From: Chrysomallon squamiferum | Lineage: Eukaryota > Animalia > Mollusca | Assembly: GCA_012295275.1 (NCBI GenBank) | Contig: CM022671.1 | Coordinates: 3,534,001 to 3,598,000, forward strand | Reading direction: 5' to 3' | DNA length: 64,000 nucleotides | Shown: in pieces, positions 10,426 through 46,792 of the stretch | Layout: the number at the start of each line of letters is the position of its first letter | Numbering within the stretch: position 1 is the stretch's first letter | Translations under genes and position numbers: made by a program | Notes under the pieces: model-generated | What the model was told of the DNA's origin: nothing | The model's database searches: none | What the model saw: the letters and a program-made list of their open reading frames with translations, nothing else

Positions 10426-10494
10426 TTTTAGTTTGTTTTCACAGATAACTAAAACCGTTTTTATCTCTGAATCTCCAAGCATTGTATTTAACAA

Positions 10495-11040
10495 GGCTCT
10501 CTGTTGAGTGTCAGAACATTGTTTTATGATGGTCTCTGCTGTGTAAGAACATTGTGTTTTATGATCTCACTCCTGAGTGTCAGAACATTGCTTTTAGGCT
10601 CTCTGTTGAGTGTCAGAACATTGTTTTATGATGGTCTCTGCTGTGTAAGAACATTGTGTTTTATGAGGCTCTCTCCTGAGTGTCAGAACATTGTTTTTAG
10701 GCTCTGTCCTGAGTGTCAGAACATTGTTTTTAGGCTCTGTCCTGAGTGTCAGAACATTGTTTTTAGGCTCTGTCCTGAGTGTCAGAACATTGTTTTTAGG
10801 CTCTGTCCTGAGTGTCAGAACATTGTGTTTTATGAGGCTCTCTGCTGTGTCAGAACATTGTGTTTTATGAGGCTCTGTCCTGAGTGTCAGAACATTGTGT
10901 TTTATGAGGCTCTGTCCTGAGTGTCAGAACATTGTGTTTTATGTGACTTTCCATTGAGTTTCGGCACATTGTGTTTTAAGAGAGTACTGAGTTTCATAAC
11001 ATTTTGTCTGATGAGGCTCTCTGCTGAGTGTCAGAATATT
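10495..11040 (+). repeat. 33/38-bp minisatellite (gctctgtcctgagtgtcagaacattgt(g)tttt(atg)ag) just downstream of the DENND6 stop
   Basis: About 14 visible tandem copies of the tgagtgtcagaacattg-like core, starting about 70 nt after TGA. Confidence 0.95.
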
Positions 11041-23198: not shown

Positions 23199-26100
23199 TC
23201 AATAAATCTTCATTTCTTTTTAGGTGGTTATTCAGAGATGGTCTCTTACCAGTTAAAACTAATTTTATTGGTTATGCAAGAACTAAAATGACAATGAATG
23301 AACTGAAGGCAAAATGTCTGCCGTACATGAAGGTACATTTACACTAGTGTTCAGTTGGATTAATGTCAATTGCTATGTGTATTAAATAGGAATTAAAATA
23401 ATTAAAGAACAGTGTTTTACTAACAGGAAGGTACATGCGCAGAAATGTTCTGAAGTTTTACTTATTGTCTGTATGTTGACATCCAAAATGAAAAAGTTAT
23501 TACAAACAGTGGAAATTAATATTTGTAGGTTTTATATTTTAATTTTTTATTAATGCATGTTTGTGTGTGTGTGTTTATACATGTAAAAGCACAATTTAAA
23601 AAAGTAATAAATAAATAAATAAAATATTCTATTTTGAATCAATAAATTTCTGATTTTATTCTATTTTTTGAAGTATGCTTCAATTATTGAAATTTTGGTT
23701 ATCAGTCATTAGAATATTTGTTATCTCAGTTGTCTCCTGATATGAACCAATTCCTACAAGGATTTTTAAGACAGTGTTTATATACTGTGCCTCTCAGTCA
23801 CTGTCTCCATTTTATCATACAAAATATTATAACTGTTATCAGTGATGTGCTTCTTAACACTGGATCAGTAATATGGAAGAAAATCAAAATGACTGGAATA
23901 CAATAATTACATTTAGCAAGTTCATACAGAGGCATTATAGTCATTTTGCTTACATATTTAGTTAGAGTATTTGCTTGTTTTGTTTTTTTGCAGCTGAAAC
24001 CAGAAGAGAATGAAAAAGTGGAACATTTTTTCAAGTTAAATGAGTACATGGCTGGTTCCTATGACAAGGCTGAGGATTTTTCCAAACTCAGTAAACTAAT
24101 AGACCAGAAAGGCTCAGCAAACCGACTTTTTTATCTTGCTTTGCCACCCTCTGTGTTTGAAAAAGTCACACTCAACATCAAGGCTGTGTGCATGGCTCCT
24201 GGGTGAGTGTAGAACCAGAACCAGATTCAGCTGTCACCTAAGATGAAGCTACTGCTCATGGCTTTACAGTCAGAAGCAGCCTCTGTGAATTTCAGTTCAA
24301 ATAATACACATTGTTATTCTTGTCAAATGTGGCCTATGTAGCCTCACCAAATCTAAGTTTGCCGTTAAGTGTATGAATGGTTTGTTTGTGTGAGTTACAG
24401 AAATTGTACAGAGTTAGGAATGAAAAACAGTTGAGTTTCATTTTGGTTTAAGATGTCATAAAATATAAAAATAACAGAAAATAATAAATTACATAACAGA
24501 GTATGGAATCATTGTTTTATAATGAAAAAACATATTTTTTATTTAATTAAAAAAACTAAAATTGTAACATTATTAGGATAAAATTTTGGGGTCAAGATAT
24601 AACTGAGGGATAAATATCTTTAACTTTTCAAAATTTAAGTGGAATTACATGCATATTGTTGATTATATTTAAATTTTAAAAAAAAATGTTCTTATCAATT
24701 AAAAAATCTCAACAATGCAACAGATTAAAAAAATAATCCCAGAACATAATTTTTTTTGTTTTTGTTTATTGGTCATGTTATGTGTTACAGAGAAAGATGG
24801 ACGAGAATTGTTGTAGAGAAGCCATTTGGTTATGACTTGGAGTCCTCAAACTACCTGTCAGCTCATCTCTCTGCTTTGTTTAAAGAAGATCAGCTCTACA
24901 GAATTGATCACTACCTAGGCAAGGAAATGGTGCAGAATCTCATTGTTTTAAGGTACTGTAAAGAAGAAGGTCACTGTTAAAATGTATGACATCTGTGCAA
25001 AGTCCTGTTTTATGATATTATGAAAATCGTCACAATGTTGATTAAAGCTTTTGTTAAAGTATACATTTCTGCACAAAATGTTATGTCTTGTATGTAAATT
25101 TATGACTGACAAATGACCTGATTACCCCCAAATTGTAGTTGTACTTGTTTTTTTTTCATGATTTCTGATAATGCTGATAATGAAGTATAATAATAAAAGG
25201 ATATATCCAGGAAATGATGGATGCAGTTTTTTTTTTATATTATTTAGTGCTGTATTTAAGTAATAATAATAATAATAATAATAATAATATCTAATTCCCT
25301 AGCAACTCTTGGTTTTAAACAAAAAACAATCACCTGGATGTGTGCAAAATATATTTACATTATTTGTTCATATCACCATAGAAACAATGAGAAATGTAAT
25401 GCTGACATGTATTTGTTTCTATTTTTAGAATCTTGTGTGAAATCACAAAAGCATAGAAATAGAAAACCATGAATTTTAAAATTCCGACATAAAGTGTGGT
25501 ATCTTTATTTTTTCTCTTTAGGTTTGGAAACCGAATATTTAGTCAGATTTGGAACAGGGACAACATCGCCAACGTGGTGATCACTTTCAAAGAGCCATTC
25601 GGAACTCAGGGTCGAGGTGGATATTTTGACAAATTTGGAATAATTAGGTGTGTGGCAGTTTAATTTCTTCTGATGTTACAGTAAACAGTAATAACAATAT
25701 ATGTGATACGTATGATTGTTTGAATGTTAAAAGTGTTAATTGCTGTGAAGATTTCACAAATTGAATGTAAGTAGTATATGCTAATTTATAGATACTTCAA
25801 TTTTCAGAGATGTTATGCAGAATCATCTCCTCCAGATTCTTACTCTCACTGCCATGGAAAAGCCAGCAACCACAGGAGCTGAAGACATCCGAAATGAAAA
25901 AGTAAATTATTACTTCATAACATTTAGTATCCCTAGTTTGTTAATGCTTCCACCTGTTTGTTTTTTCATTTGATAAAATTTACTTGAAGTACACAGATTG
26001 TGTAAATGCATTTTATTTATTCTTGATGAAATCAATTTCTGTTAACATCAAAGTATGACAATAAAATAACAAGCTTAAGATAATGTCAAGAGGCAGACAT

Positions 26101-26840
26101 TTTCTCAGAAAACAAAGTTTCCACTTTAATAAATTGTCCTAGATAAACCACTTTTGATAGTTTTCTTTGTTGTCTGACTACAGGTAAAAGTCCTGCGATG
26201 TATTCGACCAGTGAAAATGGAAGATGTGGTGCTGGGACAGTATCAGGGCAACCCAAATGGCACTGGAGAAGAAAAAGATAGTTATCTTGATGATCCTACT
26301 GTGCCAAAGGGTAGCTTTTTTCTTTTGAATCATTAATAATCTGAAGTTAATGATAGTTCAGTGACAGGTTGCTACCCAAGGCAGAATCAGTCCTGCTTGA
26401 TGCTCCCTCTGGGCTATTGTCCATTCCAGCCTTTGTTCCATAACTGGTTTATCAAAAGTCTTGATATGTGCTTTCCTGTTTATGAGAATGTGCATATAAA
26501 ATATTCCTTGTTGCTAAATGTGATAGATGACAAAGGGTTTCATCTTGTGTATCATCATTAAACAAAAACAATACTCCTGGACTCATAATATTAAAATGTG
26601 CTGAGGTTAGATATTTGTTCAGTCTTAATACTTGATGTTTTATATATGATACGTTAAATGTTCAGTGTTTTTTTTTTTTTTTTTCCAGATTCTCTAACAC
26701 CTACATTTGCTGTGGTTGTGTTGTATATAAGAAGTGAGAGATGGGATGGAGTTCCATTTATTCTCAGATGTGGTAAAGGTATGTCTGCTAAACCATCTGT
26801 GAGATAATATCTCAGCTGGACTTAGAGTAATCATCATAAT

Positions 26841-26898
<58 letters not shown>

Positions 26899-29584
26899 GG
26901 ATACAAAAATAGATAGCAATAATAATAAAATAATAAAATAAAAACACCAATAATAATGATAACAGTGGTAAAGAAAACATTAGTAGTGGTTATAATAATA
27001 ATAATAACAAGAATAATAATAAGAAGAATAGTAATAACTGCTTTCTGTAATCAAGTAAATGTTAAACTATAAATTTAGAGAAATATTTGCAAAAATATCA
27101 CTGAAGTTGTATTAACAAAAGATGCTTCGTGTATATTTTAACCAAATATATAAACAAAGAAAGAGTAATATATATGTATACCAGTTGTGCTTTGGCCATT
27201 GATTTAGACCATGATTGGACTACAGTTTTAAAATAGACTAATAACTATAACAAAACCTACTGGGTTAACTATTTATTTTTTTTTTGTTTTATTTTATTAA
27301 ATAAACTATTTTACTAGCTTTGAATGAAAGAAAAGCGGAGGTGAGGGTCCAGTTTCGTGAGGTTGCCGGGGACATTTTTCCTCCTGGTGAGGTGAAGAGG
27401 AATGAGCTGGTGATCAGGGTGCAGCCAGACGAGGCTGTCTATTTGAAGATGATGACGAAGATGCCGGGGATGTCAATCGAGTGTGAGGAGACTGAGCTAG
27501 ATCTCTCCTACAAGAACAGATATATGGTAAATATACAGATAAATTATATCATATTTAACAGATATATGGTAAATATACAGATAAATTATATCATAATTAA
27601 TAGATGTATGGTAAATATGCAGATAAATTATATCATATTTAACAGATATATGGTAAATATACAGATAAATTATATCATATTTAACAGATATATGGTAAAT
27701 ATGCAGATAAATTATATCATAATTAATAGATGTATGGTAAATATGCAGATAAATTATATCATATTTAACAGATATATGGTAAATATACAGATAAGTTATA
27801 TCATATTTAACAGATATATGGTAAATATACAGATATATGGTAAATATACAGATAAATTATATCATAATTAATAGATGTATGGTAAATATGCAGATAAATT
27901 ATAGCATATTTAACAGATATATGGTAAATATACAGATAAATTATATCATATTTAACAGATATATGGTAAATATGCAGATAAATTATATCATAATTAATAG
28001 ATGTATGGTAAATATGCAGATAAATTATATCATATTTAACAGATATATGGTAAATATACAGATAAGTTATATCATATTTAACAGATATATGGTAAATATG
28101 CAGATAAATTATAGCACATTTATATTTTAGATGATATCTGTACAGATAAATAATAGCACATTTATATCTTAGATGATAACTGTACAGTTAAATTATGTCA
28201 TAAATAACAGATACATGGTATATACAGGTAGATTATAGCACATTTTTATCATAGATAATAGATGATAACTGTACAGATAAGTTATATGTGGTAAATGTAT
28301 AAATTGCAGTTCATTATATCACTGATAATAGTTTTAAAGTAAATGTTCCATTACATCATATATACTAGATACATTGTAACTATGCAGATATAGTATGGTT
28401 TATCTTAAAACAAATTTAATGATAGAGATGCTGACTTCTCTTTAACTAATATATTATTTAAATTTAATTTATTTTGCTAGCATTTTATAATTTACAGATT
28501 AATAAAAATAAGTTTCAGCATACATCAGTATGGCTGTATTTTTTCTTGTTGTTATTTGGTGTGTTTTTTTTATACAAAGATTTTATTTAAAATATAAATC
28601 TCCATTTTGATAGAAGTGGTATCCACTGAATGAATTCATTTACCAACATTGTTGCAACAAAAGACAGACATCAAACAGATTTATTGACAATTAATAGTTT
28701 TTGCCACATTTCAAAAAGAGTCTAGTTTCAGCCATGGTCACCATATGTTAATTTTATGTAAATATATTTTTATGCTTTAATAAAAAATGAACAATATTTT
28801 CTTCAGGGAATCAAGATGCCTGATGCCTATGAAAGGCTGATTGTGGATGTGTTTATGGGCTCTCAGATTCATTTTGTTAGGACAGACGAACTGTCAGAAG
28901 CATGGAGAATTTTTACTCCTCTTCTTCATCAGATAGAGAATGAGAAACCAAAACCATTGCCCTATATTTATGGCAGGTGAGCTAGAGGTGTCATCAGTGA
29001 TTTTAGTATTAAAACAGATATTAAATATTAGCACTAATATTTCATGTAAAATGAGAAACCAAATAAAAAATAGTGTAAAATTGTCATCTTAAACTAATTT
29101 TTTCAGGTCTGGTGGCATAAAAAGACCAAAATATAAAAATAAAAATGAAACTGCATAAAACATAACATAGCATAATAATAATTAGTAAACAAATAATTTT
29201 GAAAATAACAAAATGTATTTGCACTTTTTGTTTGGATCATCACAGATACATATGAAAGAAATAAAATAATAATTTACAGCATTTCTCTGCTGTTTCTTTA
29301 CTACAATAACATTTTGCGTGTGTTGTGTGTGTGTGTGTGCGTGCATGTGTATGTGTGCAGATTAAGTTATATACTGTATTTGTGTTACTTTTATTATTGT
29401 AATGTTCAGTCGAGGACCACCAGAGGCTGACAAACTGGTTGCTAGACATGGCTTCAAGTACACTGGGACATACAGATGGAACCAGGAATCCTCATCCAGT
29501 AGTTTAAGAGGACAAGGTTCAATACCTCTTGTTTCAGTGCAGCCGGTAGGTTCACTTCAGGGAGGACAAATGTCCAGCTTTTGA
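18042..29584 (+). CDS. G6PD: Glucose-6-phosphate 1-dehydrogenase, 12 coding exons, 543 aa
   Basis: Exons 18042-18164, 18884-18921, 23224-23332, 23994-24202, 24791-24952, 25522-25647, 25808-25901, 26184-26310, 26689-26778, 27318-27526, 28807-28976, 29410-29584 (sum 1632 nt). Motifs: GASGDLA dinucleotide-binding fingerprint, [14 protein letters not shown], the active-site peptide [37 protein letters not shown] and PDAYERL. Confidence 0.97.
19485..19499 (+). promoter_or_regulatory. Consensus antioxidant response element (Nrf2/CncC-small Maf) in G6PD intron 2
   Basis: ATGACTCAGCAAAAA matches RTGACTCAGCA with an AT-rich 3' flank. Confidence 0.55.
20502..20725. repeat. Direct duplication of an approximately 77-nt block in G6PD intron 2 (period about 147 nt)
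   Basis: ttcttttaaatttacc(t/a)tgaaatgataat...tagtacttga(c/t)tgaagat(a/c)tgcttg(a/t)agataa occurs at about 20502 and about 20649. Confidence 0.85.
22755..22920 (+). mobile_element. Degenerate SINE-like fragment in G6PD intron 2
   Basis: ggatcagtcctgcttggtg...gctat...gtgtgctgtcctgtgtaagggaaagtgaat matches the 26380-26500 copy (gaatcagtcctgcttgatg...tgtgctttcctgtttatgagaatgtgcat). Confidence 0.5.
26352..26610 (+). mobile_element. Degenerate SINE-like repeat copy in G6PD intron 8
   Basis: Shares the core g(a/g)atca..cc...tgggcta.t.tc..ttccagcc...tcca.aactgg.ttatcaaa.g...g.tatgtgct.tcctgt with other copies in the window (about 52020+, 22755+, 38230-, 56380-, 17238-). It resembles a gastropod tRNA-derived SINE from memory. 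Confidence 0.65.
27515..28130 (+). repeat. 42-bp minisatellite (gtaaatatacagataaattatatcatatttaacagatatatg) containing the G6PD exon-10 splice donor
   Basis: 7 full units at 27527-27820, one 19-nt unit at 27821-27839, 6 full units at 27840-28091, then degenerate copies to about 28290. Confidence 0.97.
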
Positions 29585-34899: not shown

Positions 34900-35749
<850 letters not shown>

Positions 35750-36774
35750 ATGTCGGCTTACGTTCCTAATTCCTCATCGAGGGATAGTAAGTCTAGCTTC
35801 TGGAAAGCCGGAGCAAGCGTACCTGGAAGGTAGGCAATGGCATTTTAATACTAAGTTCATGAAAACGATGCACAAGAAATAAAAATCTTCACTTGTTGTT
35901 AAATTTCTGGAATTTTTTAGCAATGTCTCCATCGTATTTTTTCGGCATTAATCACACAGTTTACAATTTAATAAAGTCTGAAAATAAGCAGGTACATTAT
36001 TGTTATAGAACATAATATTAATAGTAACACGCTTAATGACGTACGCATCACCATACGAAAGCGTGAAAAACTACAGAATAAGAATTCTGAATTGCAAAGG
36101 CTATAACTTGTATAAGTATAATTAAATGTTGAATAACAAAAGCCACCCTATTTTATTTTCTACTTTTCCAATATGTGCTACATTCGTTTTTATATTTTTC
36201 AAATGAAAATAAAATATTGCTATTTAATTATATCGTATTTTATTTACATTGAAGTAAAATTGTTAAGGTAATTTCCGTGACCCAGATCCACTTAAATTTT
36301 TGACACTAATGACAACTATTATTAATAGTTATTTTCTTTTATATAATCATAATGATACTGACTGTTATAAAGCAGTTAAAATAACTGTTGTAAATTCAGT
36401 AAATGCTTGCTTTAAAGAACTAATGGTTAATGACAAATGCTGAAGTAGTCTGTAACTTGTTAGTGTTAATTATAATTAATGAAATTTGCTAGTTATTATT
36501 TTATATATTAATATGTATATGTATAATTAAAAATGTAAAAACAAAGTAAATTAATAATTATATAAAGGCCCATGACTAAAGAACATTGTACTTATAAAAA
36601 TAAATACCTAAAAGAAAAAAAAAGCACAGAAACAAATGACATTGAATTATTTTAATGTTATTATAATTATTATATTTTTTGTATGGTGTTAATCCCAGTT
36701 CTTTCATTTGATTAAAAACAAGTGCTGCATCTGAAATTCTTTATTTGAATGTCCTAAATATAATATTTGAAAAG

Positions 36775-36811
<37 letters not shown>

Positions 36812-39800
36812 GTTATAGACACCTTTATTTCTAGTTACAATTAAGTTTACTGTACAATGTTGAATTTAATATTTCATAAACAGATTTTATTCTGAAATTC
36901 AAAACGTTGTTCTTCTTCTTATAAAATCACTGTTATGTTACACGTTTTAATGAATATTTTCCTTAAAAATAAACATTCTAGTTCATTTAAAGTCTTACCC
37001 TGATATTTTTTATCATTGTCTGTTTAAACTTTATTGTAACAGAAGTTAAAAGGGCAGTGTAAACATTTCTTTCAGTATTAAACCAGTGTATGGAGCACAG
37101 CATCCTCCTATGACACACAAACCCAAAGTGTAAGTATATCTTATATTATTTTTAACATTTAATATCACTTTTGCAAACTAAAGAGAATAAAAATAAAAAG
37201 AAGAATGTAATAAATAAATGAATAAATGAATAAATGAATAAAAGAATATAATAATAAATAAATAAATAAAGAATAATAAAAATCCCAGAAAATAAAATTT
37301 CAGTCTAAAAAGATTCATAGAAGTAGTATTGTTTTCTATTATTTAATATCAGAGAGTTTACACCTTTACAAACACTTCTGCAAAGAGAAAACAAAAATTA
37401 ATAATAAAAGAAATTGTGAAAATGCAAAATAAAAATATTTATTGAAGTAAATTTTAATTCTGATACTTCTTTTTTAAGTACTTTTTTAAGTTTAAATTGT
37501 AAAAAAAATTTGATTCATCAATTAATATTTACATTCAATTTATTCTCTGTGTGTGGCAACTTTTATTTTTTGTATTTGTAAAGATTTAAAGAGGAAAGAA
37601 ACCCAAAACATTCATTTCTTCTGTGCAGTGAAAATATGCATCTTCAGTATGCATATCAACAATATGAAATTTATTAAATCAGTATTATTGGAGGTTACTT
37701 TAAATCAGCACTGCAGGGCATCTTTGTACATATCATATTATATGCTTTCATAGTATAAAGTTTTTATTGAAATATTTTCAGCAGAGAGTCACCAAAGAAA
37801 GAAGAGAAAGTTCGTGCTAACAAACATGACGCTTTTCTCAACTTTGAGAACAGCACCTCAGACGCCTGGGATGATGGCGATGATGATCTTCTTCAGATGG
37901 CCAGTGTCCAGATGTCACTGCGAGACGTCCGGTCATCAGCAAACACTGTCCTTGAGAACCACAGCAAACAAATAGGTTCTCACAGCCAAACATTAACATC
38001 AGGTCTGTTGTAGAATGAAGTGAGAAACACCATACTGATAAATGTTTAACACAACTCTAATCAAAACTCATATCCTATCAAACATTTATTTATAATTAGC
38101 TGTGTAATTAACAAGAAAGATAAGCTTTTGAAACTGCACAATGAGCTGTTCTATTGAAGTTACCTGTAAAGGAAGATGTCTGTACTACTTCCTTTGGGCA
38201 GCAAAGCATATAATCTCAATTTCATTTTTAAATCAGTTGTGGAATGATATTGGAATGGAAAGTAACCCATAGGTTGACAAAGGATGATTGATCCTGCACT
38301 ACACTAAATATCAAGCTATTAAGTGATGGATGTTGATTAAAGTTAAACTTTAATTTCATACTTGATTATTTTTACATTTTATTTGTCATTTTATCTGGAA
38401 ACTTTACAGTAACTAAAATAAACTTCAAAGTAGTTAAAGAAGATGTTCTGAAGATATCTGTTCATTTCATTAAAGATGCACTTAAGTGTTAAATACAGAT
38501 GTATTTGACAAGTAGTTGTTTCCTCGCAGATGCTGATGTTACAACATCGTCAGGCTCCACACATGGACACAGTGGAGGTGGTCCAGGAGTTGGGGTGAGA
38601 CTCAACAGCTACAAAACACCAAAAACTACTCATGTGTGCTGTGTTCAGCCATCCGTGTTAGACAGGGAGGCTTCCAAAGTTGAAAAATTTAAATCACTTC
38701 TTGCTGAAACTAACATAGATTTAGGTAAGTGTTATACAGAGTTTGCTTACTTAGAATTGATAACAAATAAATTATTAATACATCTGTAACATCTTACTAA
38801 ATATAATAGTTTCATATATTGATTATTCAAGAAAAAAATCTTGTGTCAGACCTTTTTTTTCTTCTTATTTTAAGTTATTGTTTTGCTTATGTTAATGGTT
38901 ATTAGTATCAAACATATTTTTTATAGGTTTTTAATGAAACTTTTAAAGAAAAAAAATGCTTTGAGTTATAAAAATTAATTATCTTCACACACACACAACA
39001 AAAAAAAATAAAAGAATTGTTTTTAATAGGAATGATTACAGTGGCTAAATGTAGAGATTTGTGTTTCAGATGAACTAAGGCAGCTAAGCTGGTCAGGTAT
39101 CCCCACCTGTGTCAGACCAGTCACGTGGAAAATACTTGCTGTAAGTTTTAACTGCCACAAGAAAATTAGAATTGTTGTCAGGAATTTCTTCCTATTCTTT
39201 TTTTTATTTTATTTTATTTTTTTTGAAGAAAAAAAGAAAGTAAAGGTTAACTTTGGAAGATCAAGAAAGAAAACACATAGTCACATGCACATTTAAGTTA
39301 TTATTGCTCGAAATACAAAGATATTATTTGGTTTATTTTTTATTTTCTGAAAAGGTTTTAGATTTATCAATATAATAAAAAAAAAAAATTGTTCTATGAT
39401 TTCTGTTAACCATATGGTTTCTTTTAGATTCGATTTGTGAAAAAACACACATTCATAAAAATAAAATAATAAAAATATATTGATGCATGCAAATATACAA
39501 AAATCACAGTTTTTTAATTTTCATCATTTCTAAAAATCTGTTACAAATTTCTTACAGGGCTATCTTCCTCCAAATGCTGACAGACGAGAAGCAACGCTGG
39601 AGAGAAAGAGAAGGGAATATTTTGGTTTTATTGACCAGTATTACGAAACCAGGCATAATGATATGCATGCTGATACTTTCCGACAGGTATGTCATATTTT
39701 TATAAATCTTTATTGTAACGTTTAAATCTTTATCTATTAAGAATTTATATTTTTAACAGAACAAATGTTATGATAAAGGATATTAAAATTTTGTGGGTAA

Positions 39801-41842
39801 CGTTTTAGGGTTGCTTATCAGTTCTCTAAATTTTCCAACATAGTAGGACCTTTATTATATAATGTCTCATTACTCAGAAATGTTTCATTTGGAAGTAAGG
39901 CTATTGACATAATTATTTGTAATTTTTGTTTTGTTTGTTATGTGTGGAAGAAAACCCATAATGAAATGATAATAATCTAACAAGCACAGGTTTTTTTTTT
40001 ATGAAATGTGTTTTTAAAACATAAATTTTGGCCTGGCATAGAATGATAGATTGAATTAAATATTACATTTGACAAAACATATGAAAAGATTTTTGAGTGT
40101 ATTATGTAAGTTTTGTATGTTTATTTTGAATGTTCTCACAAATGTTAACAAGAATAGTCAAAAAACAGAAAAAAAAAAAGATTACTATAAAATACTTTGT
40201 TTTACAGTATAAGAGTTATATTTTGACTAATTTTATTTATTTTTGGCTTTTGTTTTATAAGTTTCTAACTGACTGCATTTTATATATTTATTTCATTTCT
40301 TTTTTTAAAAGTACATTAATTTGACATTTTTAGAAATTAATTTAGTTATTTAATATGCAGATCCAAATTCTGCAAGCTTAATGAAAGCTATCTGATTGCT
40401 ACTGAGAAATTCATCACAAAAAGAAAAAAAAACTAAGAACCAAGATAATTAGTGCTTGAAGCATTTTTAAGAAACCTCAGTGCCAATAAGATGTCATCAT
40501 TTGATTAAAGCATTTAAACCTTCTGTTGCTTTTATTTTTCATATCTTTTGCTTACTAATTATTACATGTATTATTATCATTCTTTTTGAAAAAAAATTAA
40601 AATGTTTATACACCTTTTTCTTTGGGATGATAACTCCACGTAATGTATTGTTTTCTTTGATTAATTAAGCAAATTCTCATTTTAGGAACTAATAATTAAT
40701 TTGTTAGGTCAGGTATTCTTGTATATTTATTTAATTTTTTTTTTTTTTTTTTTTTTTTTAAATCTACATACCCATAGTGTATCTTAACATTTACCTTTAA
40801 TTTTCCTCTTCTTTTTTTGTTAATTTTTTTTTTTTTTTATATTTTTGTTTTAGGTTTATTTTTTATTATTTTTGTTTTGTTGCTTTATTTTGTGTTCTTG
40901 TTTATCACCATATTTTGAACTGATAAGAGGAGGCGCCATCTGGTTTTGTTTCAGATTGCTATAGACATCCCTCGAATGAACCCCCTCATTCCCATATTTC
41001 AGCAAGATGTAGTGCAAGAAGTGAGTAATGGTTTAATGGTCAGGGTTTTTATTCTACTTAGCCCACACCCAGTATTGTGATAATCTTTTTTTTCTCTCAC
41101 ATCACCACAAGTTTCACAAACACCAACAAATAAACCAGTTTTGAACAAAAAGTAAACATAAATAATAATATTTGGAAATAATCAAGATCAGAGATTTAAA
41201 AAAAGAAAAGAAAAAAAGAAGTTATAATAAAATTATAATAATAAGCAGATATTTCTGAATAATGACAAACAGATTACAAAATATTTTAAACATTTGGAAC
41301 TAAATTTTACCATCAAATTTCATTTTGGTCTTAATAGATGATTTTCATTTCTGACAAAATCCCTACTTTCCCTACGTCTCTGAATCATTTTGGTGAGCAG
41401 TTTTACAAATATTAAATTTAACTAGTTTTTAAAAATATTTTTGTCAAGTTGGTTTCTGTGAACACAGTGTTGGTATGAAAGAGAAAGACTGTCGCAGGGT
41501 AGGTACATCAGTGTTTCTGGGTGTTGTAATGGTTGGCATTTGTAACTGGCCATCGCTGTCCATCTGTTATTTTGCAGATACTAAAAGACATCCCACGCAT
41601 GACCACTCTAGCACATTTGATGCAACATAAGGTTATCCAGCAAGTGAGTATGGTGTGAGCAGAGAACACTGTGAGTCTCTCCGCTCTGCAAAACCTTTGA
41701 TTTGCTTTCTCTTGTAGCAGAGCTTCAGCACAGATAATTAGGTAGATACTCACTAATTAGCACCATAACGATGGTTTTGTTAATAACATTAAACAGTAAT
41801 AACTATCTGAATTGTAACAACAGATGTGAGACTTTTTCTTAT

Positions 41843-41879
<37 letters not shown>

Positions 41880-41929
41880 TAATAATTGTATACTTTCAAA
41901 TGATGTTCCTTCTTCCAGGTCTAGTATTT

Positions 41930-41962
<33 letters not shown>

Positions 41963-44900
41963 TTAATAATAGTTTAATAACAGATGTAATGATAATAAAA
42001 TGTATTTTTCTAACAATGACCACAACAACAAATAAATAATCATTTATATACTTCTCAGTGATTGTTCATTCTTATAATAATAATAATAATAACAAATTAA
42101 TTGTCATTTTGTATATTTACAAGAGTTTGTTCATTCCTGTTGAACTAGCCTTTTCTAATAATGAAGTTTGACAGAATCTTTCATTGTGTTACATTTGTTT
42201 GTAACAAGAACAGTAATAAAACAGTTGTAGCAGTGAACACAAATGTAATACTCTTAAAGCATGAATCCAATCCCATGAAAATTATTGCACCAAATTATTT
42301 ATTATTTACAATAATTATCTTGGGTAGAGAGAGATAAAAGTTCCCATTAATGAAGATGTTGTTATCTCTACATAATTATTATTTTATAGATAAATTTCTC
42401 TTACATGCTTTATATATTAATTTCTCTTACATGCTTTATATATTACTAAGATGGTGTACCTTTCAGATTTTCTTCTTTTAGCTGTCTGATAAAATTACTT
42501 CAATTAATTCCGCATAGTAATTTATTTTTTGAGATAATGTAAAATAGAGATTGTTAAAATGATTCAGTTCTGTAATAAGTATTTGCTTTGCTTTACAAAT
42601 TGCACAAACATACACATACACATGCAAATGTGATGATAAATATACATTAACAGATAATAAATATAATACCTACCAGATGTTAACACACATTAACATATAC
42701 ATACATAAGTACATGCAAAAATAGATACATTATATATATTCATGTATACAGACACACATGCTAGCACAGAAATACATACATGCATACATTTATGCATTCA
42801 AACAAATAATATTTTCTTGTGTTGTTTTTAGTTTTATTATTTCTTTGTTCAGATACTTATTTCTCTTCTAGTAATAATTCTGTGATCTTTATTTTGTACA
42901 CATTTCTTTATGTTGCTTTTCAGTCTTTGAGCTAATTGCCAGTCTATTTTAATAATAACAACTGCCAATTATTTGTAAATTGGTTTGCAGATTATATGCT
43001 TTTTTAATCTGGTAATACTTTATATTAAATATATAAATAGATAAATAAATAAAATATAATAACAAAAAACCACAGAACATAACTACATTGTCCAGAAACC
43101 AACCACAAACAAAACAAATCTGTCCAGCAATTCTGAGTCAGTTTTAAATACATTTATATAATTTGATATTTTACAAAACAAAAAATGAAGCCTCAGATTC
43201 AGATCAAGGACAGATGTAGCTATTAGACAGAACAGGCAGTTAGTTACATAAATTACTAACATTTTCATCACTGAATTATTATTAATGTAATAAACTTACA
43301 TTGCATATTAAGAAGTCAGCTAAAAAAATACCATAAATTATTAAGGATTATTTCAAAACTTGAAATGATAAAACAGTATTGCACTTTGTCATTCATTACC
43401 TTACAAGAACAATATACTGTCTAAGGAAGAATAGATCCATCTTATATTAGTTTTAAATTTGGAAGTAGATAACAAAAAAAAGTTTGTATTAATTTAACCC
43501 TTAGAACCTAAATGACCTCTAAAAAGAACAGGCTGTTATGTGAGGAATACCTTCAGTTTATTTCAATCACAGATTTGAGAAACTTGTGAGCGAAATTTTC
43601 CCACTTTGGAGAGCCAGTTCTGAGCTCTTCATTATTATATATGTCAGGTCCCAAAGGGTTATATTTTTTAAATTTTTACAAAATTGTAAAATATTTAAAA
43701 AAATGATTTTTTATATTTTCATATGGTTTTAAAAAAAATTGTTGAATGTTTGAATAATTTAATAGTGACATTGTTTATTTCAAATATCCTGTATTGTAAT
43801 AGTAATGAAATATAACTGAGTATATTTAAAAGTTCAGTTGTAATTATGCCAGTCTTTAGAAATACTAATGTTAGCAGAATTATAATTGAACATTTTGAAT
43901 ATTTTAGTACTTACAGTGAAAAAAAATTGTTTATGTAATAATAGTAAAAATATATATATGGGCATTTTGAACATTTTAGTATTTGTTACCCTTTCAAGTT
44001 ATTAGTTTAGTTTAAGATAAATGTTCTGCTATTGTATTTAATATTGAATGTTTTATTTTACAGATATTTGAGAGAATTTTGTTTATCTGGGCTATAAGAC
44101 ACCCTGCCAGTGGTTATGTCCAGGGTATAAATGACCTGGTCACTCCATTCTTTGTTGTGTTTCTCTCTGAGTACATCTCAAATGGTAAAAACTGGTTTTA
44201 TTGTTTCAGTCACATTTTTATATCTAATAATTTTTTAAATCAGATATTTTTTTTGCAATCATAATTTATTTTTCCTTTCTAAATTTCTTTTCAGTTTTAT
44301 TTTTTTTTGTCTCAGTTTTTTTTTGAATAACTTATTCACCTCTATGAAGGCCATGTTTGTAGATAAACACATTTATACAGACATTATTTTGTCAAGCAGA
44401 CACGTAATCTTGTGTCACTTTGTAATGGCTTCTTGTTCTCGTGTAACAAAAGCATCAGATATTGCATCATAAGTTTTGTCATTAATTGATTTTATATTCA
44501 TTAACAGTCATAACTGTTGTAGATTGAACAACTTGTTGATTTAGAAACTATTACGTGTTTGTTGCTGATTGTCATCTAACTGATATTAAGGAACATATTA
44601 TGACTTCATTATTTAAAATGTTGCCTGATGCTGTTTAGGTTGCAGTATCAGTTCCACTAATTTTTCCTACTGCATAGTTTCTCATTCTAATCAGTAATCA
44701 GTATCTGTTTTTTATGAAACATCATGACATATGAACGTCATTATAAAAGAGATTGCCTGTTATTAATTGTCTATAAAATGGTGATTCTGATTATCAAGCT
44801 ATTGTTTGGCCTGTAATAAAGTTAAAATAAATTTGTGTTTTTAAACAGATGTTTGTTTATTTGCAGATATCGAGGCTGATAACTGTGATTTGAAAGAACT

Positions 44901-45140
44901 TCCCAAAGCTACTCTTGATATTATTGAGGCAGACAGCTTCTGGTGCACATCCAAGTTGCTGGATGGAATACAGGACAACTACACATTTGCTCAACCTGGA
45001 ATTCAGATGAAAGTAAATGCACTGCAAGAACTTATTAAAAGAATAGATGGTAAGCCTCTGCTTAGAGATGCATTCTATACCTCTTTTAAATAAATGGTTT
45101 TATATCTCTTTTAAGAACACCAACAAAAAATAAATAAATA

Positions 45141-45172
<32 letters not shown>

Positions 45173-46792
45173 TTATAATTAATAATAAAAAGAAATATTT
45201 CTGTAAAATGCTTGAAACAAGAAAGATATGTTTAAAAAATAAAGCTATATTTTTAGATGAAAATTCGAAATTATTTTTTGAATATGATGGAAATTGGAAA
45301 TACATGCTAGAAAAATGCTGCACTTAAAAAAATTATGTTTGTTGACAAGTGGTTATTAACCCTTTTTTTTTTTTTTTTTTCTCAACATCCATTTTCAATT
45401 ATGTTTAACAGTTGGCATCTCATAGATTAAATTTGATTCTGGCCATAAAAGTACATTTACAATTAAACTAGAAGCATTTATAATAGATACATCATTTACA
45501 ACCCCTGTGTATTTTCACAGCACATAAAGCAGGTGCTACCATCCAGATTAAAAATGTATGCTGCAGTCTATTAACAGTGAATTTTCTTTGTCTTTGTGTA
45601 GCTCCACTTCACAAACACCTGGTCTCTCACAATGTTGAGTATCTGCAGTTTTCTTTCCGATGGATGAACAACTTGTTAATGAGAGAAATTCCTCTCAGGT
45701 GTACGATACGACTGTGGGATACCTATCTTGTATGTCACACACAAATTTTTTATTATCATTCATTTTACTTGTTTATTTATGAAATATTTTCTCAGCTTGT
45801 GTCAAAGATTTCATTTGGAGTTTAAAGAATTCCACTGCCCCTTTTAAAACATGACTTATCATATCATGATGACTGGGCATTTTTTAAAAAAGTTTTATTC
45901 ACTATTGTAGCCTTAAATCAACCATTTTGCTTTTGTAATTGACAAAAGCCCTGTGTCAGTTTATTCCAGAAGTCAAATTAATATTTTGTTTAGAATTGCA
46001 AATAATAAACTTTATTGTATACATAGTTTTGTTAACTGGTTAATTATAAATGTGATATATCTCTGTATTTGAAAAAAAATTAATTTAATTTTTGTTTTGT
46101 TTGGTGACTGATCATTTTCATTTTACAAATTATATATATATATATATATATATATCTTATTTTGTTTAGTTAAAATATAAATAATTTTAAAATTTCAGTC
46201 TGAAGTAAATGGTTTTGCTGATTTTCACCTCTACGTCTGTGCCTCTTTTCTTGTTCAGTTTTCTTCTAACATTTTACGTGAAAGAGATTTCCAGGTGTGT
46301 TCTTAGTAATCTTCATCCAAATTATATTATGTTATTTAATTTATTTAAATTTTATTAACTATTCGAATTGTAACTAATTTTCTATCAAATTTAAATTATT
46401 TCTTTCTCAGATTTTATTTAGTTAATAAAATTTGATTAAATTTTATTTGTATTTTGTTACTGTTTTTTTTCTCCAATTTTAATTTTTTATATATTTTTTT
46501 TTATTCAGATTCATCCATCTATTTTATTTTATTCAATTTCAGTGATAGGTTTTATTTAATTTTATTTAATTACTAAGTTTTATTTATTCTCTATATTATT
46601 ATTATTTCTTTTTTTTTAAATTATTTTTTTTAAAGTTATTTAATCTTGTTTTGCCAGGGAATCCTGATGTTTCTGCAAAACTTGCCAACCAGACATTGGA
46701 ACAACAAGGAGATAGGAGAAATCATGGCTGAGGCCTACAAATTAAAATACATGTTTGCAGACGCTCCAAACCACTTGATGAAAAAATCATGA
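35750..46792 (+). CDS. TBC1D22: TBC1 domain family member 22 (Rab GTPase-activating protein), 12 exons per isoform, 492 aa
   Basis: Exons 35750-35829, 37076-37129, 37782-38002, 38530-38724, 39070-39140, 39558-39686, [40955-41020 or 41578-41643], 44064-44184, 44867-45049, 45602-45729, 46199-46294, 46658-46792 (sum 1479 nt). Motifs: FWK..PGSIKPVYGAQHPP, TSDAWD, ELRQLSWSGIP, IxxDIPR, WAIRHPASGYVQGINDLVTPF, EADSFWC, QDNYTFAQPGIQ, QFSFRWMNNLLMRE, RLWDTY and YMFADAPNH. Confidence 0.95.
38230..38300 (-). mobile_element. Degenerate SINE-like fragment in TBC1D22 intron 3
   Basis: The reverse complement reads caggatcaatc...cctatgggttactttccattccaa...ttccacaactga, similar to the 26380-26450 core. Confidence 0.45.
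40955..41020 (+). CDS. TBC1D22: TBC1D22 exon 7a (arginine-finger exon, canonical-like variant) IAIDIPRMNPLIPIFQQDVVQE
   Basis: tttgtttcag|ATT...GAA|gtgagt, 66 nt, phase 0/0, carries the IxxDxxR motif. Confidence 0.92.
41578..41643 (+). CDS. TBC1D22: TBC1D22 exon 7b (duplicated arginine-finger exon, divergent variant) ILKDIPRMTTLAHLMQHKVIQQ
   Basis: tattttgcag|ATA...CAA|gtgagt, 66 nt, phase 0/0, open frame, same length as 7a. I..DIPRM and Q..V.Q are conserved. Confidence 0.85.
43498..43658. mobile_element. Possible piggyBac-type MITE remnant
   Basis: TTAA|CCCTTAGAACCT ... AGGTCCCAAAGGG|TTAT: short imperfect TIRs with CCC/GGG termini and a TTAA-like target site. Confidence 0.45.

Follow-up and report, generated by a model that had tools for sequence, protein, structure and literature searches.

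TBC-domain GTPase-activating proteins (GAPs) act in trans on the GTP of Rab proteins through two catalytic fingers, the arginine of an IxxDxxR motif and the glutamine of a YxQ motif (PMC5902227). According to the same review, these proteins are promiscuous in vitro and owe their specificity mostly to localisation. Within the TBC1D22/Gyp1 group, yeast Gyp1 inactivates Ypt1 (PMC13090580). Human TBC1D22B, a protein tied to breast-cancer prognosis, is a GAP for RAB1B and also binds it, whereas RAB1B binding by TBC1D22A is negligible; TBC1D22A was compared by binding, without a GAP assay of TBC1D22A on RAB1B (PMC12631847). The two human proteins have a similar fragmenting effect on the Golgi and are each listed with Rab33; in the table of that study an inactive TBC1D22A mutant did not cause the fragmentation (PMC2064371). 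Two splice forms of the Caenorhabditis elegans orthologue, tbc-3a and tbc-3b, differ in rescue activity (PMC2396877, PMC10579535). Because the catalytic arginine is numbered 237 in one of these papers and 257 in the other, the two forms appear to differ N-terminal to this residue and outside the exon considered here, and they were set aside as a precedent. The accessible text of PMC3622926 contains no mention of exons or splicing.

Mutually exclusive homologous exons and related substitutions derived from tandem exon duplication have been surveyed repeatedly (Martinez Gomez 2021, PMC8373072; Hatje 2017, PMC5740500; Lam 2021, PMC7954323). The exon pair reported here resembles them in adjacency, length, phase, age, the conservation of both copies and the swap of one domain stretch. 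It differs in two respects: the exchanged stretch contains a residue by which a Rab-GAP catalyses in trans, and exclusion is leaky in gene models. The separation of splice isoforms after gene duplication, described for CALU, U2AF1, MARVELD3 and others (Abascal 2015, PMC4494069), resembles the situation of a lamprey gene with two exons and amniote paralogs that each keep one; the starting point of that survey was a set of human exon pairs, and its accessible text has no match to TBC1D22. The gene was not found in the searched supplements of PMC8373072, PMC5740500, PMC7954323 and PMC4494069, some supplement files lying outside the search, and its absence from the first three fits one exon copy per human gene. 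A full-text search, with subscription journals and some supplements outside its reach, returned no paper on the pair. Both phenomena, alternative splicing between homologous exons and their later distribution over paralogs, are established classes, and the TBC1D22 pair is a new member of these classes.

The window, a stretch of 64,000 nucleotides of the Chrysomallon squamiferum genome, contains a TBC1D22 gene of 12 coding exons on the + strand, from 35750 to 46792, with GT-AG boundaries at all introns. Sequence and fold both place its product as an orthologue of the TBC1D22/Gyp1 Rab-GAPs. RNA support covers positions 35400-43000, exons 8 to 12 lying beyond that span. The first coding exon (35750..35829, ATG at 35750) is an open frame joined to the second by the RNA joint 35829>37076; RNA joints also flank exon 2 (37076..37129) and define exon 3 (37785..38002), exon 4 (38530..38724) and exon 5 (39070..39140), which encodes the TBC motif WxxL. 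Exon 6 (39558..39686) directly precedes the arginine-finger exon and has a phase-0 end. Downstream of the latter, exon 8 (44064..44184) encodes the glutamine finger YVQG and exon 9 (44867..45049) matches TBC1D22A/B and Gyp1p in the PDB. Exon 10 (45602..45729) was placed by open frame and homology, and exons 11 (46199..46294) and 12 (46658..46792, to the stop codon) by the spliced open frame. The donor of exon 3 (38003-38008) is a weak GTCTGT and is nevertheless used in all three RNA runs analysed. With either copy of the arginine-finger exon, 7a or 7b, the spliced frame is stop-free and encodes 491 amino acids. Both isoforms possess the IxxDxxR and YxQ fingers, with Arg256 and Gln291 separated by 35 residues, the spacing of R274 and Q309 in TBC1D22B. 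They share 449/489 or 448/489 residues, about 92%, with the matching isoforms of Gigantopelta aegis. Domain, fingers and fold are those of TBC1D22A/B and Gyp1 (PDB 2qfz, 6d0s, 1fkm, 2g77), the difference being that here the arginine-finger segment comes in two versions from one gene.

These two versions reside in exons 7a (40955..41020) and 7b (41578..41643), both of 66 nt and phase 0/0, with AG acceptors and an identical a|gtgagta donor. Coordinates, lengths, splice sites and both peptides given in an earlier note on this DNA were all reproduced. The copies are identical at 37/66 nucleotides and 10/22 residues, and seven of the ten common residues are encoded by different codons. The earlier description of kept residues with synonymous codons therefore holds as a pattern, except that the Val19 codons are gta/gtt instead of gtg/gtt and that Leu11, likewise common to both, was missing from the list. 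Around the arginine, 7b differs from 7a by AI to LK on the preceding side and by NPLIPI to TTLAHL on the following side. A scan of 39687-44063 for phase-0 AG..GT exons of 51-75 nt with D4 and R7 found start sites only for 7a and 7b. A profile built from 92 exon variants, in all of which the D and R of IxxDxxR are invariant, had no match in the 64-kb window other than these two exons, which scored 38.8 and 36.3 bits. Adjacency, homology (including repeat-search family D9), phase, similar length and intact splice sites are those of tandem homologous exons, and the pair is a tandem duplicate of the catalytic-arginine exon of TBC1D22. Since this exon is symmetric in phase, its duplication leaves the reading frame intact.

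The TBC1D22 stretch was matched by four RNA runs from one study and one DNA-like run from another, and three of the RNA runs, all shallow, were analysed. In all three, exon 6 was joined directly to 7b with 7a skipped (39686>41578; depth 27/54/28), and a loose end beyond 41643 carried the beginning of exon 8 (X1-X3). Exon 7b is used in this species. The earlier note had cast doubt on 7b; the situation is the opposite, 7b being the form observed in RNA and 7a the copy not seen spliced here. No joint into or out of 7a was present among those listed for the contigs of the three runs, contigs being an output that drops rare forms, and the single RNA contig listed over 7a was unspliced, with a depth of 4.1. 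The contig of the DNA-like run showed no difference over 41439-41829, against 2.1% in the seven other listed pieces (Poisson P ~2.5e-4), and, in the 550 nt that comprise 7a and adjoining sequence, 15 differences. The zero-difference stretch around 7b hints at constrained splicing signals, in a single data set where a shared haplotype may have the same effect. Immediately before 7b, the intron positions 41431..41577 have 41% GC, against 23% just upstream, and are a candidate splicing-control sequence.

Conservation was assessed in 46 named mollusc taxa (two Mytilus species counted once), many of them represented by one protein only. An exon of the 7b type, referred to below as derived, was present in 41/46 taxa, the 7a or ancestral type in 25/46 and both in 20/46. 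Gastropods, bivalves and cephalopods each possess both, and two chiton models contain the ancestral exon only. Mean exon identity across molluscs was 0.86 within each class and 0.565 between classes, so that the proposed purifying selection on both copies is borne out at the protein level. The outcomes by which the earlier note would have rejected 7b, lack of spliced use and absence or disruption in relatives, were not observed. RefSeq annotates isoforms of the 7a and 7b types automatically and without comment; Gigantopelta has a 7a-only RefSeq isoform, X3, in which 21/22 exon residues are those of the window's 7a. One cuttlefish cluster contains assembly-derived proteins of each single-exon kind. 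The DNA pattern of 7b matched none of the metagenome contigs. Isoforms of scallop, oyster and Lineus carry an extra GLGLG-like insert of 6-7 residues, perhaps a microexon, right before the arginine-finger exon (P0010, P0027, P0033, P0048, P0138, P0140, P0146, P0148, P0149, P0151, P0153, P0156, P0189); a corresponding exon was not found in intron 6 or in the 7a-7b intron of the window.

Several comparisons indicate which copy came first. In PDB searches, the 7a segment matched TBC1D22B (6d0s, E 5e-05), with a weak hit to yeast Gyp1p (E 0.12), and the 7b segment alone had no match at E up to 10. In a coral-type locus (L016) and a locus of another animal (L025), exons 6 and 8 enclose just one exon, of 66 nt and phase 0/0, and the ancestral type occurs in all 15 listed of the 24 members of an Acropora cluster. 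As judged from these sequence matches, single-exon loci and Acropora proteins, 7a is the ancestral, Gyp1/TBC1D22B-like copy of IxIDIPRxNP type and 7b, of ILKDIPRMT type, the derived one. The single exon of L016 and L025 further shows that the arginine-finger exon was a frame-neutral module already before its duplication.

Outside the molluscs, derived exons with a lysine at position 3 were found in the brachiopod Lingula (22 aa), in the nemerteans Lineus and Tubulanus (19 aa), in the annelid Owenia (20 aa) and in the tapeworm Echinococcus (19 aa). In Lingula, Lineus, Tubulanus and Owenia the ancestral exon is present as well; the two Echinococcus proteins seen have the derived one only. The ancestral exon precedes the derived one in Tubulanus and follows it in Owenia. 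In a thin, annotation-based sample, only the ancestral type was present in horseshoe crabs (3 proteins), a dragonfly, Priapulus, a nematode, Ptychodera (3) and a rotifer (3). Six rotifer-like loci (L004, L006, L009, L014, L017, L027) retain the intron before the arginine-finger exon and are devoid of the intron after it; fused in this way to exon 8, the exon could not duplicate as a module there.

Vertebrates carry an exon pair as well. Two lamprey species have an ancestral isoform and an isoform with a 21-aa derived exon (X1/X2), and lampreys thus represent the state before the gene duplication, with both exons in one gene. TBC1D22A of sharks, rays, chimaera, bichir, sturgeon, bowfin and teleosts contains the derived and then the ancestral exon, the reverse of the mollusc order, and in a fish genomic locus (L005) the two are separate AG..GT exons of 63 and 66 nt. 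Both segments were present in 111/111 new rows of a search whose query itself selects for both; no tetrapod was among the best 120 of 348 matches. Among assembly-derived shark proteins, two carried both exons (contigs P0113 and P0233) and one the derived exon only. In amniote TBC1D22A the derived exon alone was found in 120/120 proteins, the best matches to a cat TBC1D22A query that favours this form; they came almost entirely from mammals, with a bird, the tuatara and a turtle. Human TBC1D22A (2qfz) has the derived exon and human TBC1D22B (6d0s) the ancestral one, and in a fish TBC1D22B-like locus (L024) no derived exon was found on the upstream side of the ancestral exon. The vertebrate pair was likely partitioned between the paralogs, amniote TBC1D22A keeping the derived and TBC1D22B the ancestral exon, with the loss in amniote TBC1D22A resting on protein models. 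The split looks stepwise, because fish TBC1D22A still has both exons. Two further observations concern this gene. In sawfish and electric ray (P0240-P0246) the ancestral exon has no proline before the catalytic arginine, which may reflect relaxed selection. Models of shark and elephant-shrew (P0201, P0208, P0579; L005:3323) contain an 18-residue derived exon that matches an inner GT donor at 54 nt, and 7b has an inner GT at the same place.

The number of origins was addressed with an exon tree of 22 columns that carries a long-branch warning. In this tree the derived exons of spiralians and those of vertebrates form two groups with 91% each (unstarred), the lamprey derived exon falls with that of jawed vertebrates (91/87, unstarred), and a single shared origin of the derived exons has a p-AU of 0.41. 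More than one duplication is favoured because the exon orders are flipped between lineages, a matter that a 22-column tree cannot decide.

For the structural context of 7b, an alignment-based AlphaFold2 model was made of the Gigantopelta 7b isoform, in which 20/22 exon residues are those of the window's 7b; a single-sequence fold had given a pLDDT of 35. The model fits 2qfz at 1.9 A. In it, exon 7b runs from the last part of one helix through a loop into the following helix, and this helix-loop-helix is kept (residues 241-270, pLDDT 89/74/86), which suggests that the swap preserves the arginine finger and alters its surroundings.

Taken together, we consider it probable, with some reserve, that 7a and 7b are an old tandem duplication, likely spliced mostly singly, that likely yields two active Rab-GAPs differing in Rab preference or rate. 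The ancestral exon was copied in tandem without disturbing the frame, and both copies were retained. Exon 7a keeps the IxIDIPRxNP surface common to yeast Gyp1 and human TBC1D22B, which act on Ypt1/RAB1; the changed residues flanking the arginine in 7b may alter the choice of substrate or its turnover. The binding of RAB1B by TBC1D22B and only negligibly by TBC1D22A (PMC12631847) and the inactivation of Ypt1 by Gyp1 (PMC13090580) speak for such a change. The choice between the exons may be regulated by tissue or stage. Vertebrates carry a similar pair, in one gene in the lamprey and in TBC1D22A in sharks and bony fish, and this pair was likely partitioned between TBC1D22A and TBC1D22B. A bolder version, which we regard as possible but doubtful, would make the arginine-finger exon a specificity cassette that was duplicated repeatedly, in spiralians perhaps twice and in vertebrates, with the ancestral copy a Rab1/Ypt1 GAP and the derived copies retargeted; the same 21-22 residues would then explain why human TBC1D22B and not TBC1D22A acts on RAB1B. 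Against an altered Rab preference, the two paralogs also differ outside this exon, as an alignment of cat TBC1D22A with frog TBC1D22B showed, both human proteins fragment the Golgi (PMC2064371), and TBC GAPs are described as promiscuous in vitro (PMC5902227). Less probable still is a derived exon without retargeting, the product being, for the same Rabs, a GAP of lower activity or different regulation, or else a form that binds Rab. The poor RAB1B binding of human TBC1D22A (PMC12631847) is in line with this, as is the loss of the proline before the arginine in the derived exon of nemerteans, of the tapeworm and of Owenia, where the distance from Arg to Gln is 32-33 residues instead of 35. Against it count the invariance of D and R in every aligned variant, the Golgi fragmentation that human TBC1D22A causes and its inactive mutant does not (PMC2064371), and the prevalence of the 7b form in the RNA of this species and among assembly-derived mollusc proteins.

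The mutually exclusive use proposed earlier has to be qualified. Among 28 assembly-derived mollusc proteins, assigned by similarity, 25 carried the derived exon and three, all cephalopod-like, the ancestral one; none carried both or neither. In contrast, RefSeq/GenBank gene models with both exons exist in 9/46 mollusc taxa, always in the order ancestral then derived, and models with neither in two, Mercenaria and Aplysia. Exclusion is thus mostly, not strictly, mutual. Use of a single exon was seen for 7b in this species and for each exon in relatives, and not for 7a in this species. The products with both exons (513 aa) and with neither (469 aa) are also in frame; as all four combinations keep it, decay of wrong products cannot enforce exclusion, and the intron of 557 nt between the exons is far too long for steric exclusion. 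RNA folding was no better than that of shuffled sequences in three folds (z 0.44, -0.53 for the whole region and -0.02), and the repeat search listed only AT-rich pairs. One weak lead is a 9-nt perfect complement of the 7b donor at 41746..41754, of which 8 nt also fit the 7a donor (chance ~0.004 for one donor); this anti-donor element might mask a donor by pairing. The failure of decay, steric hindrance and RNA folding to explain exclusion, the models with both or neither exon and the shark contigs with both would suit 7a and 7b as independent cassettes, their double and empty forms being regulated products such as a GAP switched off or serving as a decoy. Given that neither form occurs among the assembly-derived mollusc proteins and that the RNA contigs of this species skip 7a, we regard this as improbable. 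Even more remote appears a reading of 7a as an unused leftover in this species, replaced by 7b as apparently in amniote TBC1D22A. It would account for the absence of a 7a joint among those listed for the three RNA runs, for the unspliced contig and for the differences over 7a in the DNA contig. Yet the sequence of 7a is undamaged, its splice sites conform to the consensus, and it is nearly identical to a segment that Gigantopelta uses in an annotated isoform, the ancestral exon is conserved in molluscs as strongly as the derived one, and the RNA runs are shallow and come from a single study.

The pair bears on the determinants of Rab preference in TBC-GAPs, since it offers natural protein pairs whose only difference lies in the 22 residues that surround the catalytic arginine. 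Such pairs have persisted in several classes of molluscs and have a counterpart in vertebrates, so that a single exchange would suffice to test the question. The pair would also offer a concrete reason for the different behaviour of human TBC1D22A and TBC1D22B, and isoform separation gains a probable further case, invisible to surveys starting from human exons.

Elsewhere in the window, about 6 kb upstream and on the same strand, lies a gene at ~23900-29584 (+) which, by its motifs, we take to be glucose-6-phosphate dehydrogenase-like. Its last exon seems to continue into a Ser/Gln-rich tail. Arrays of short-unit tandem repeats occupy 27530-28220, in an intron of this gene, and 10490-10930.
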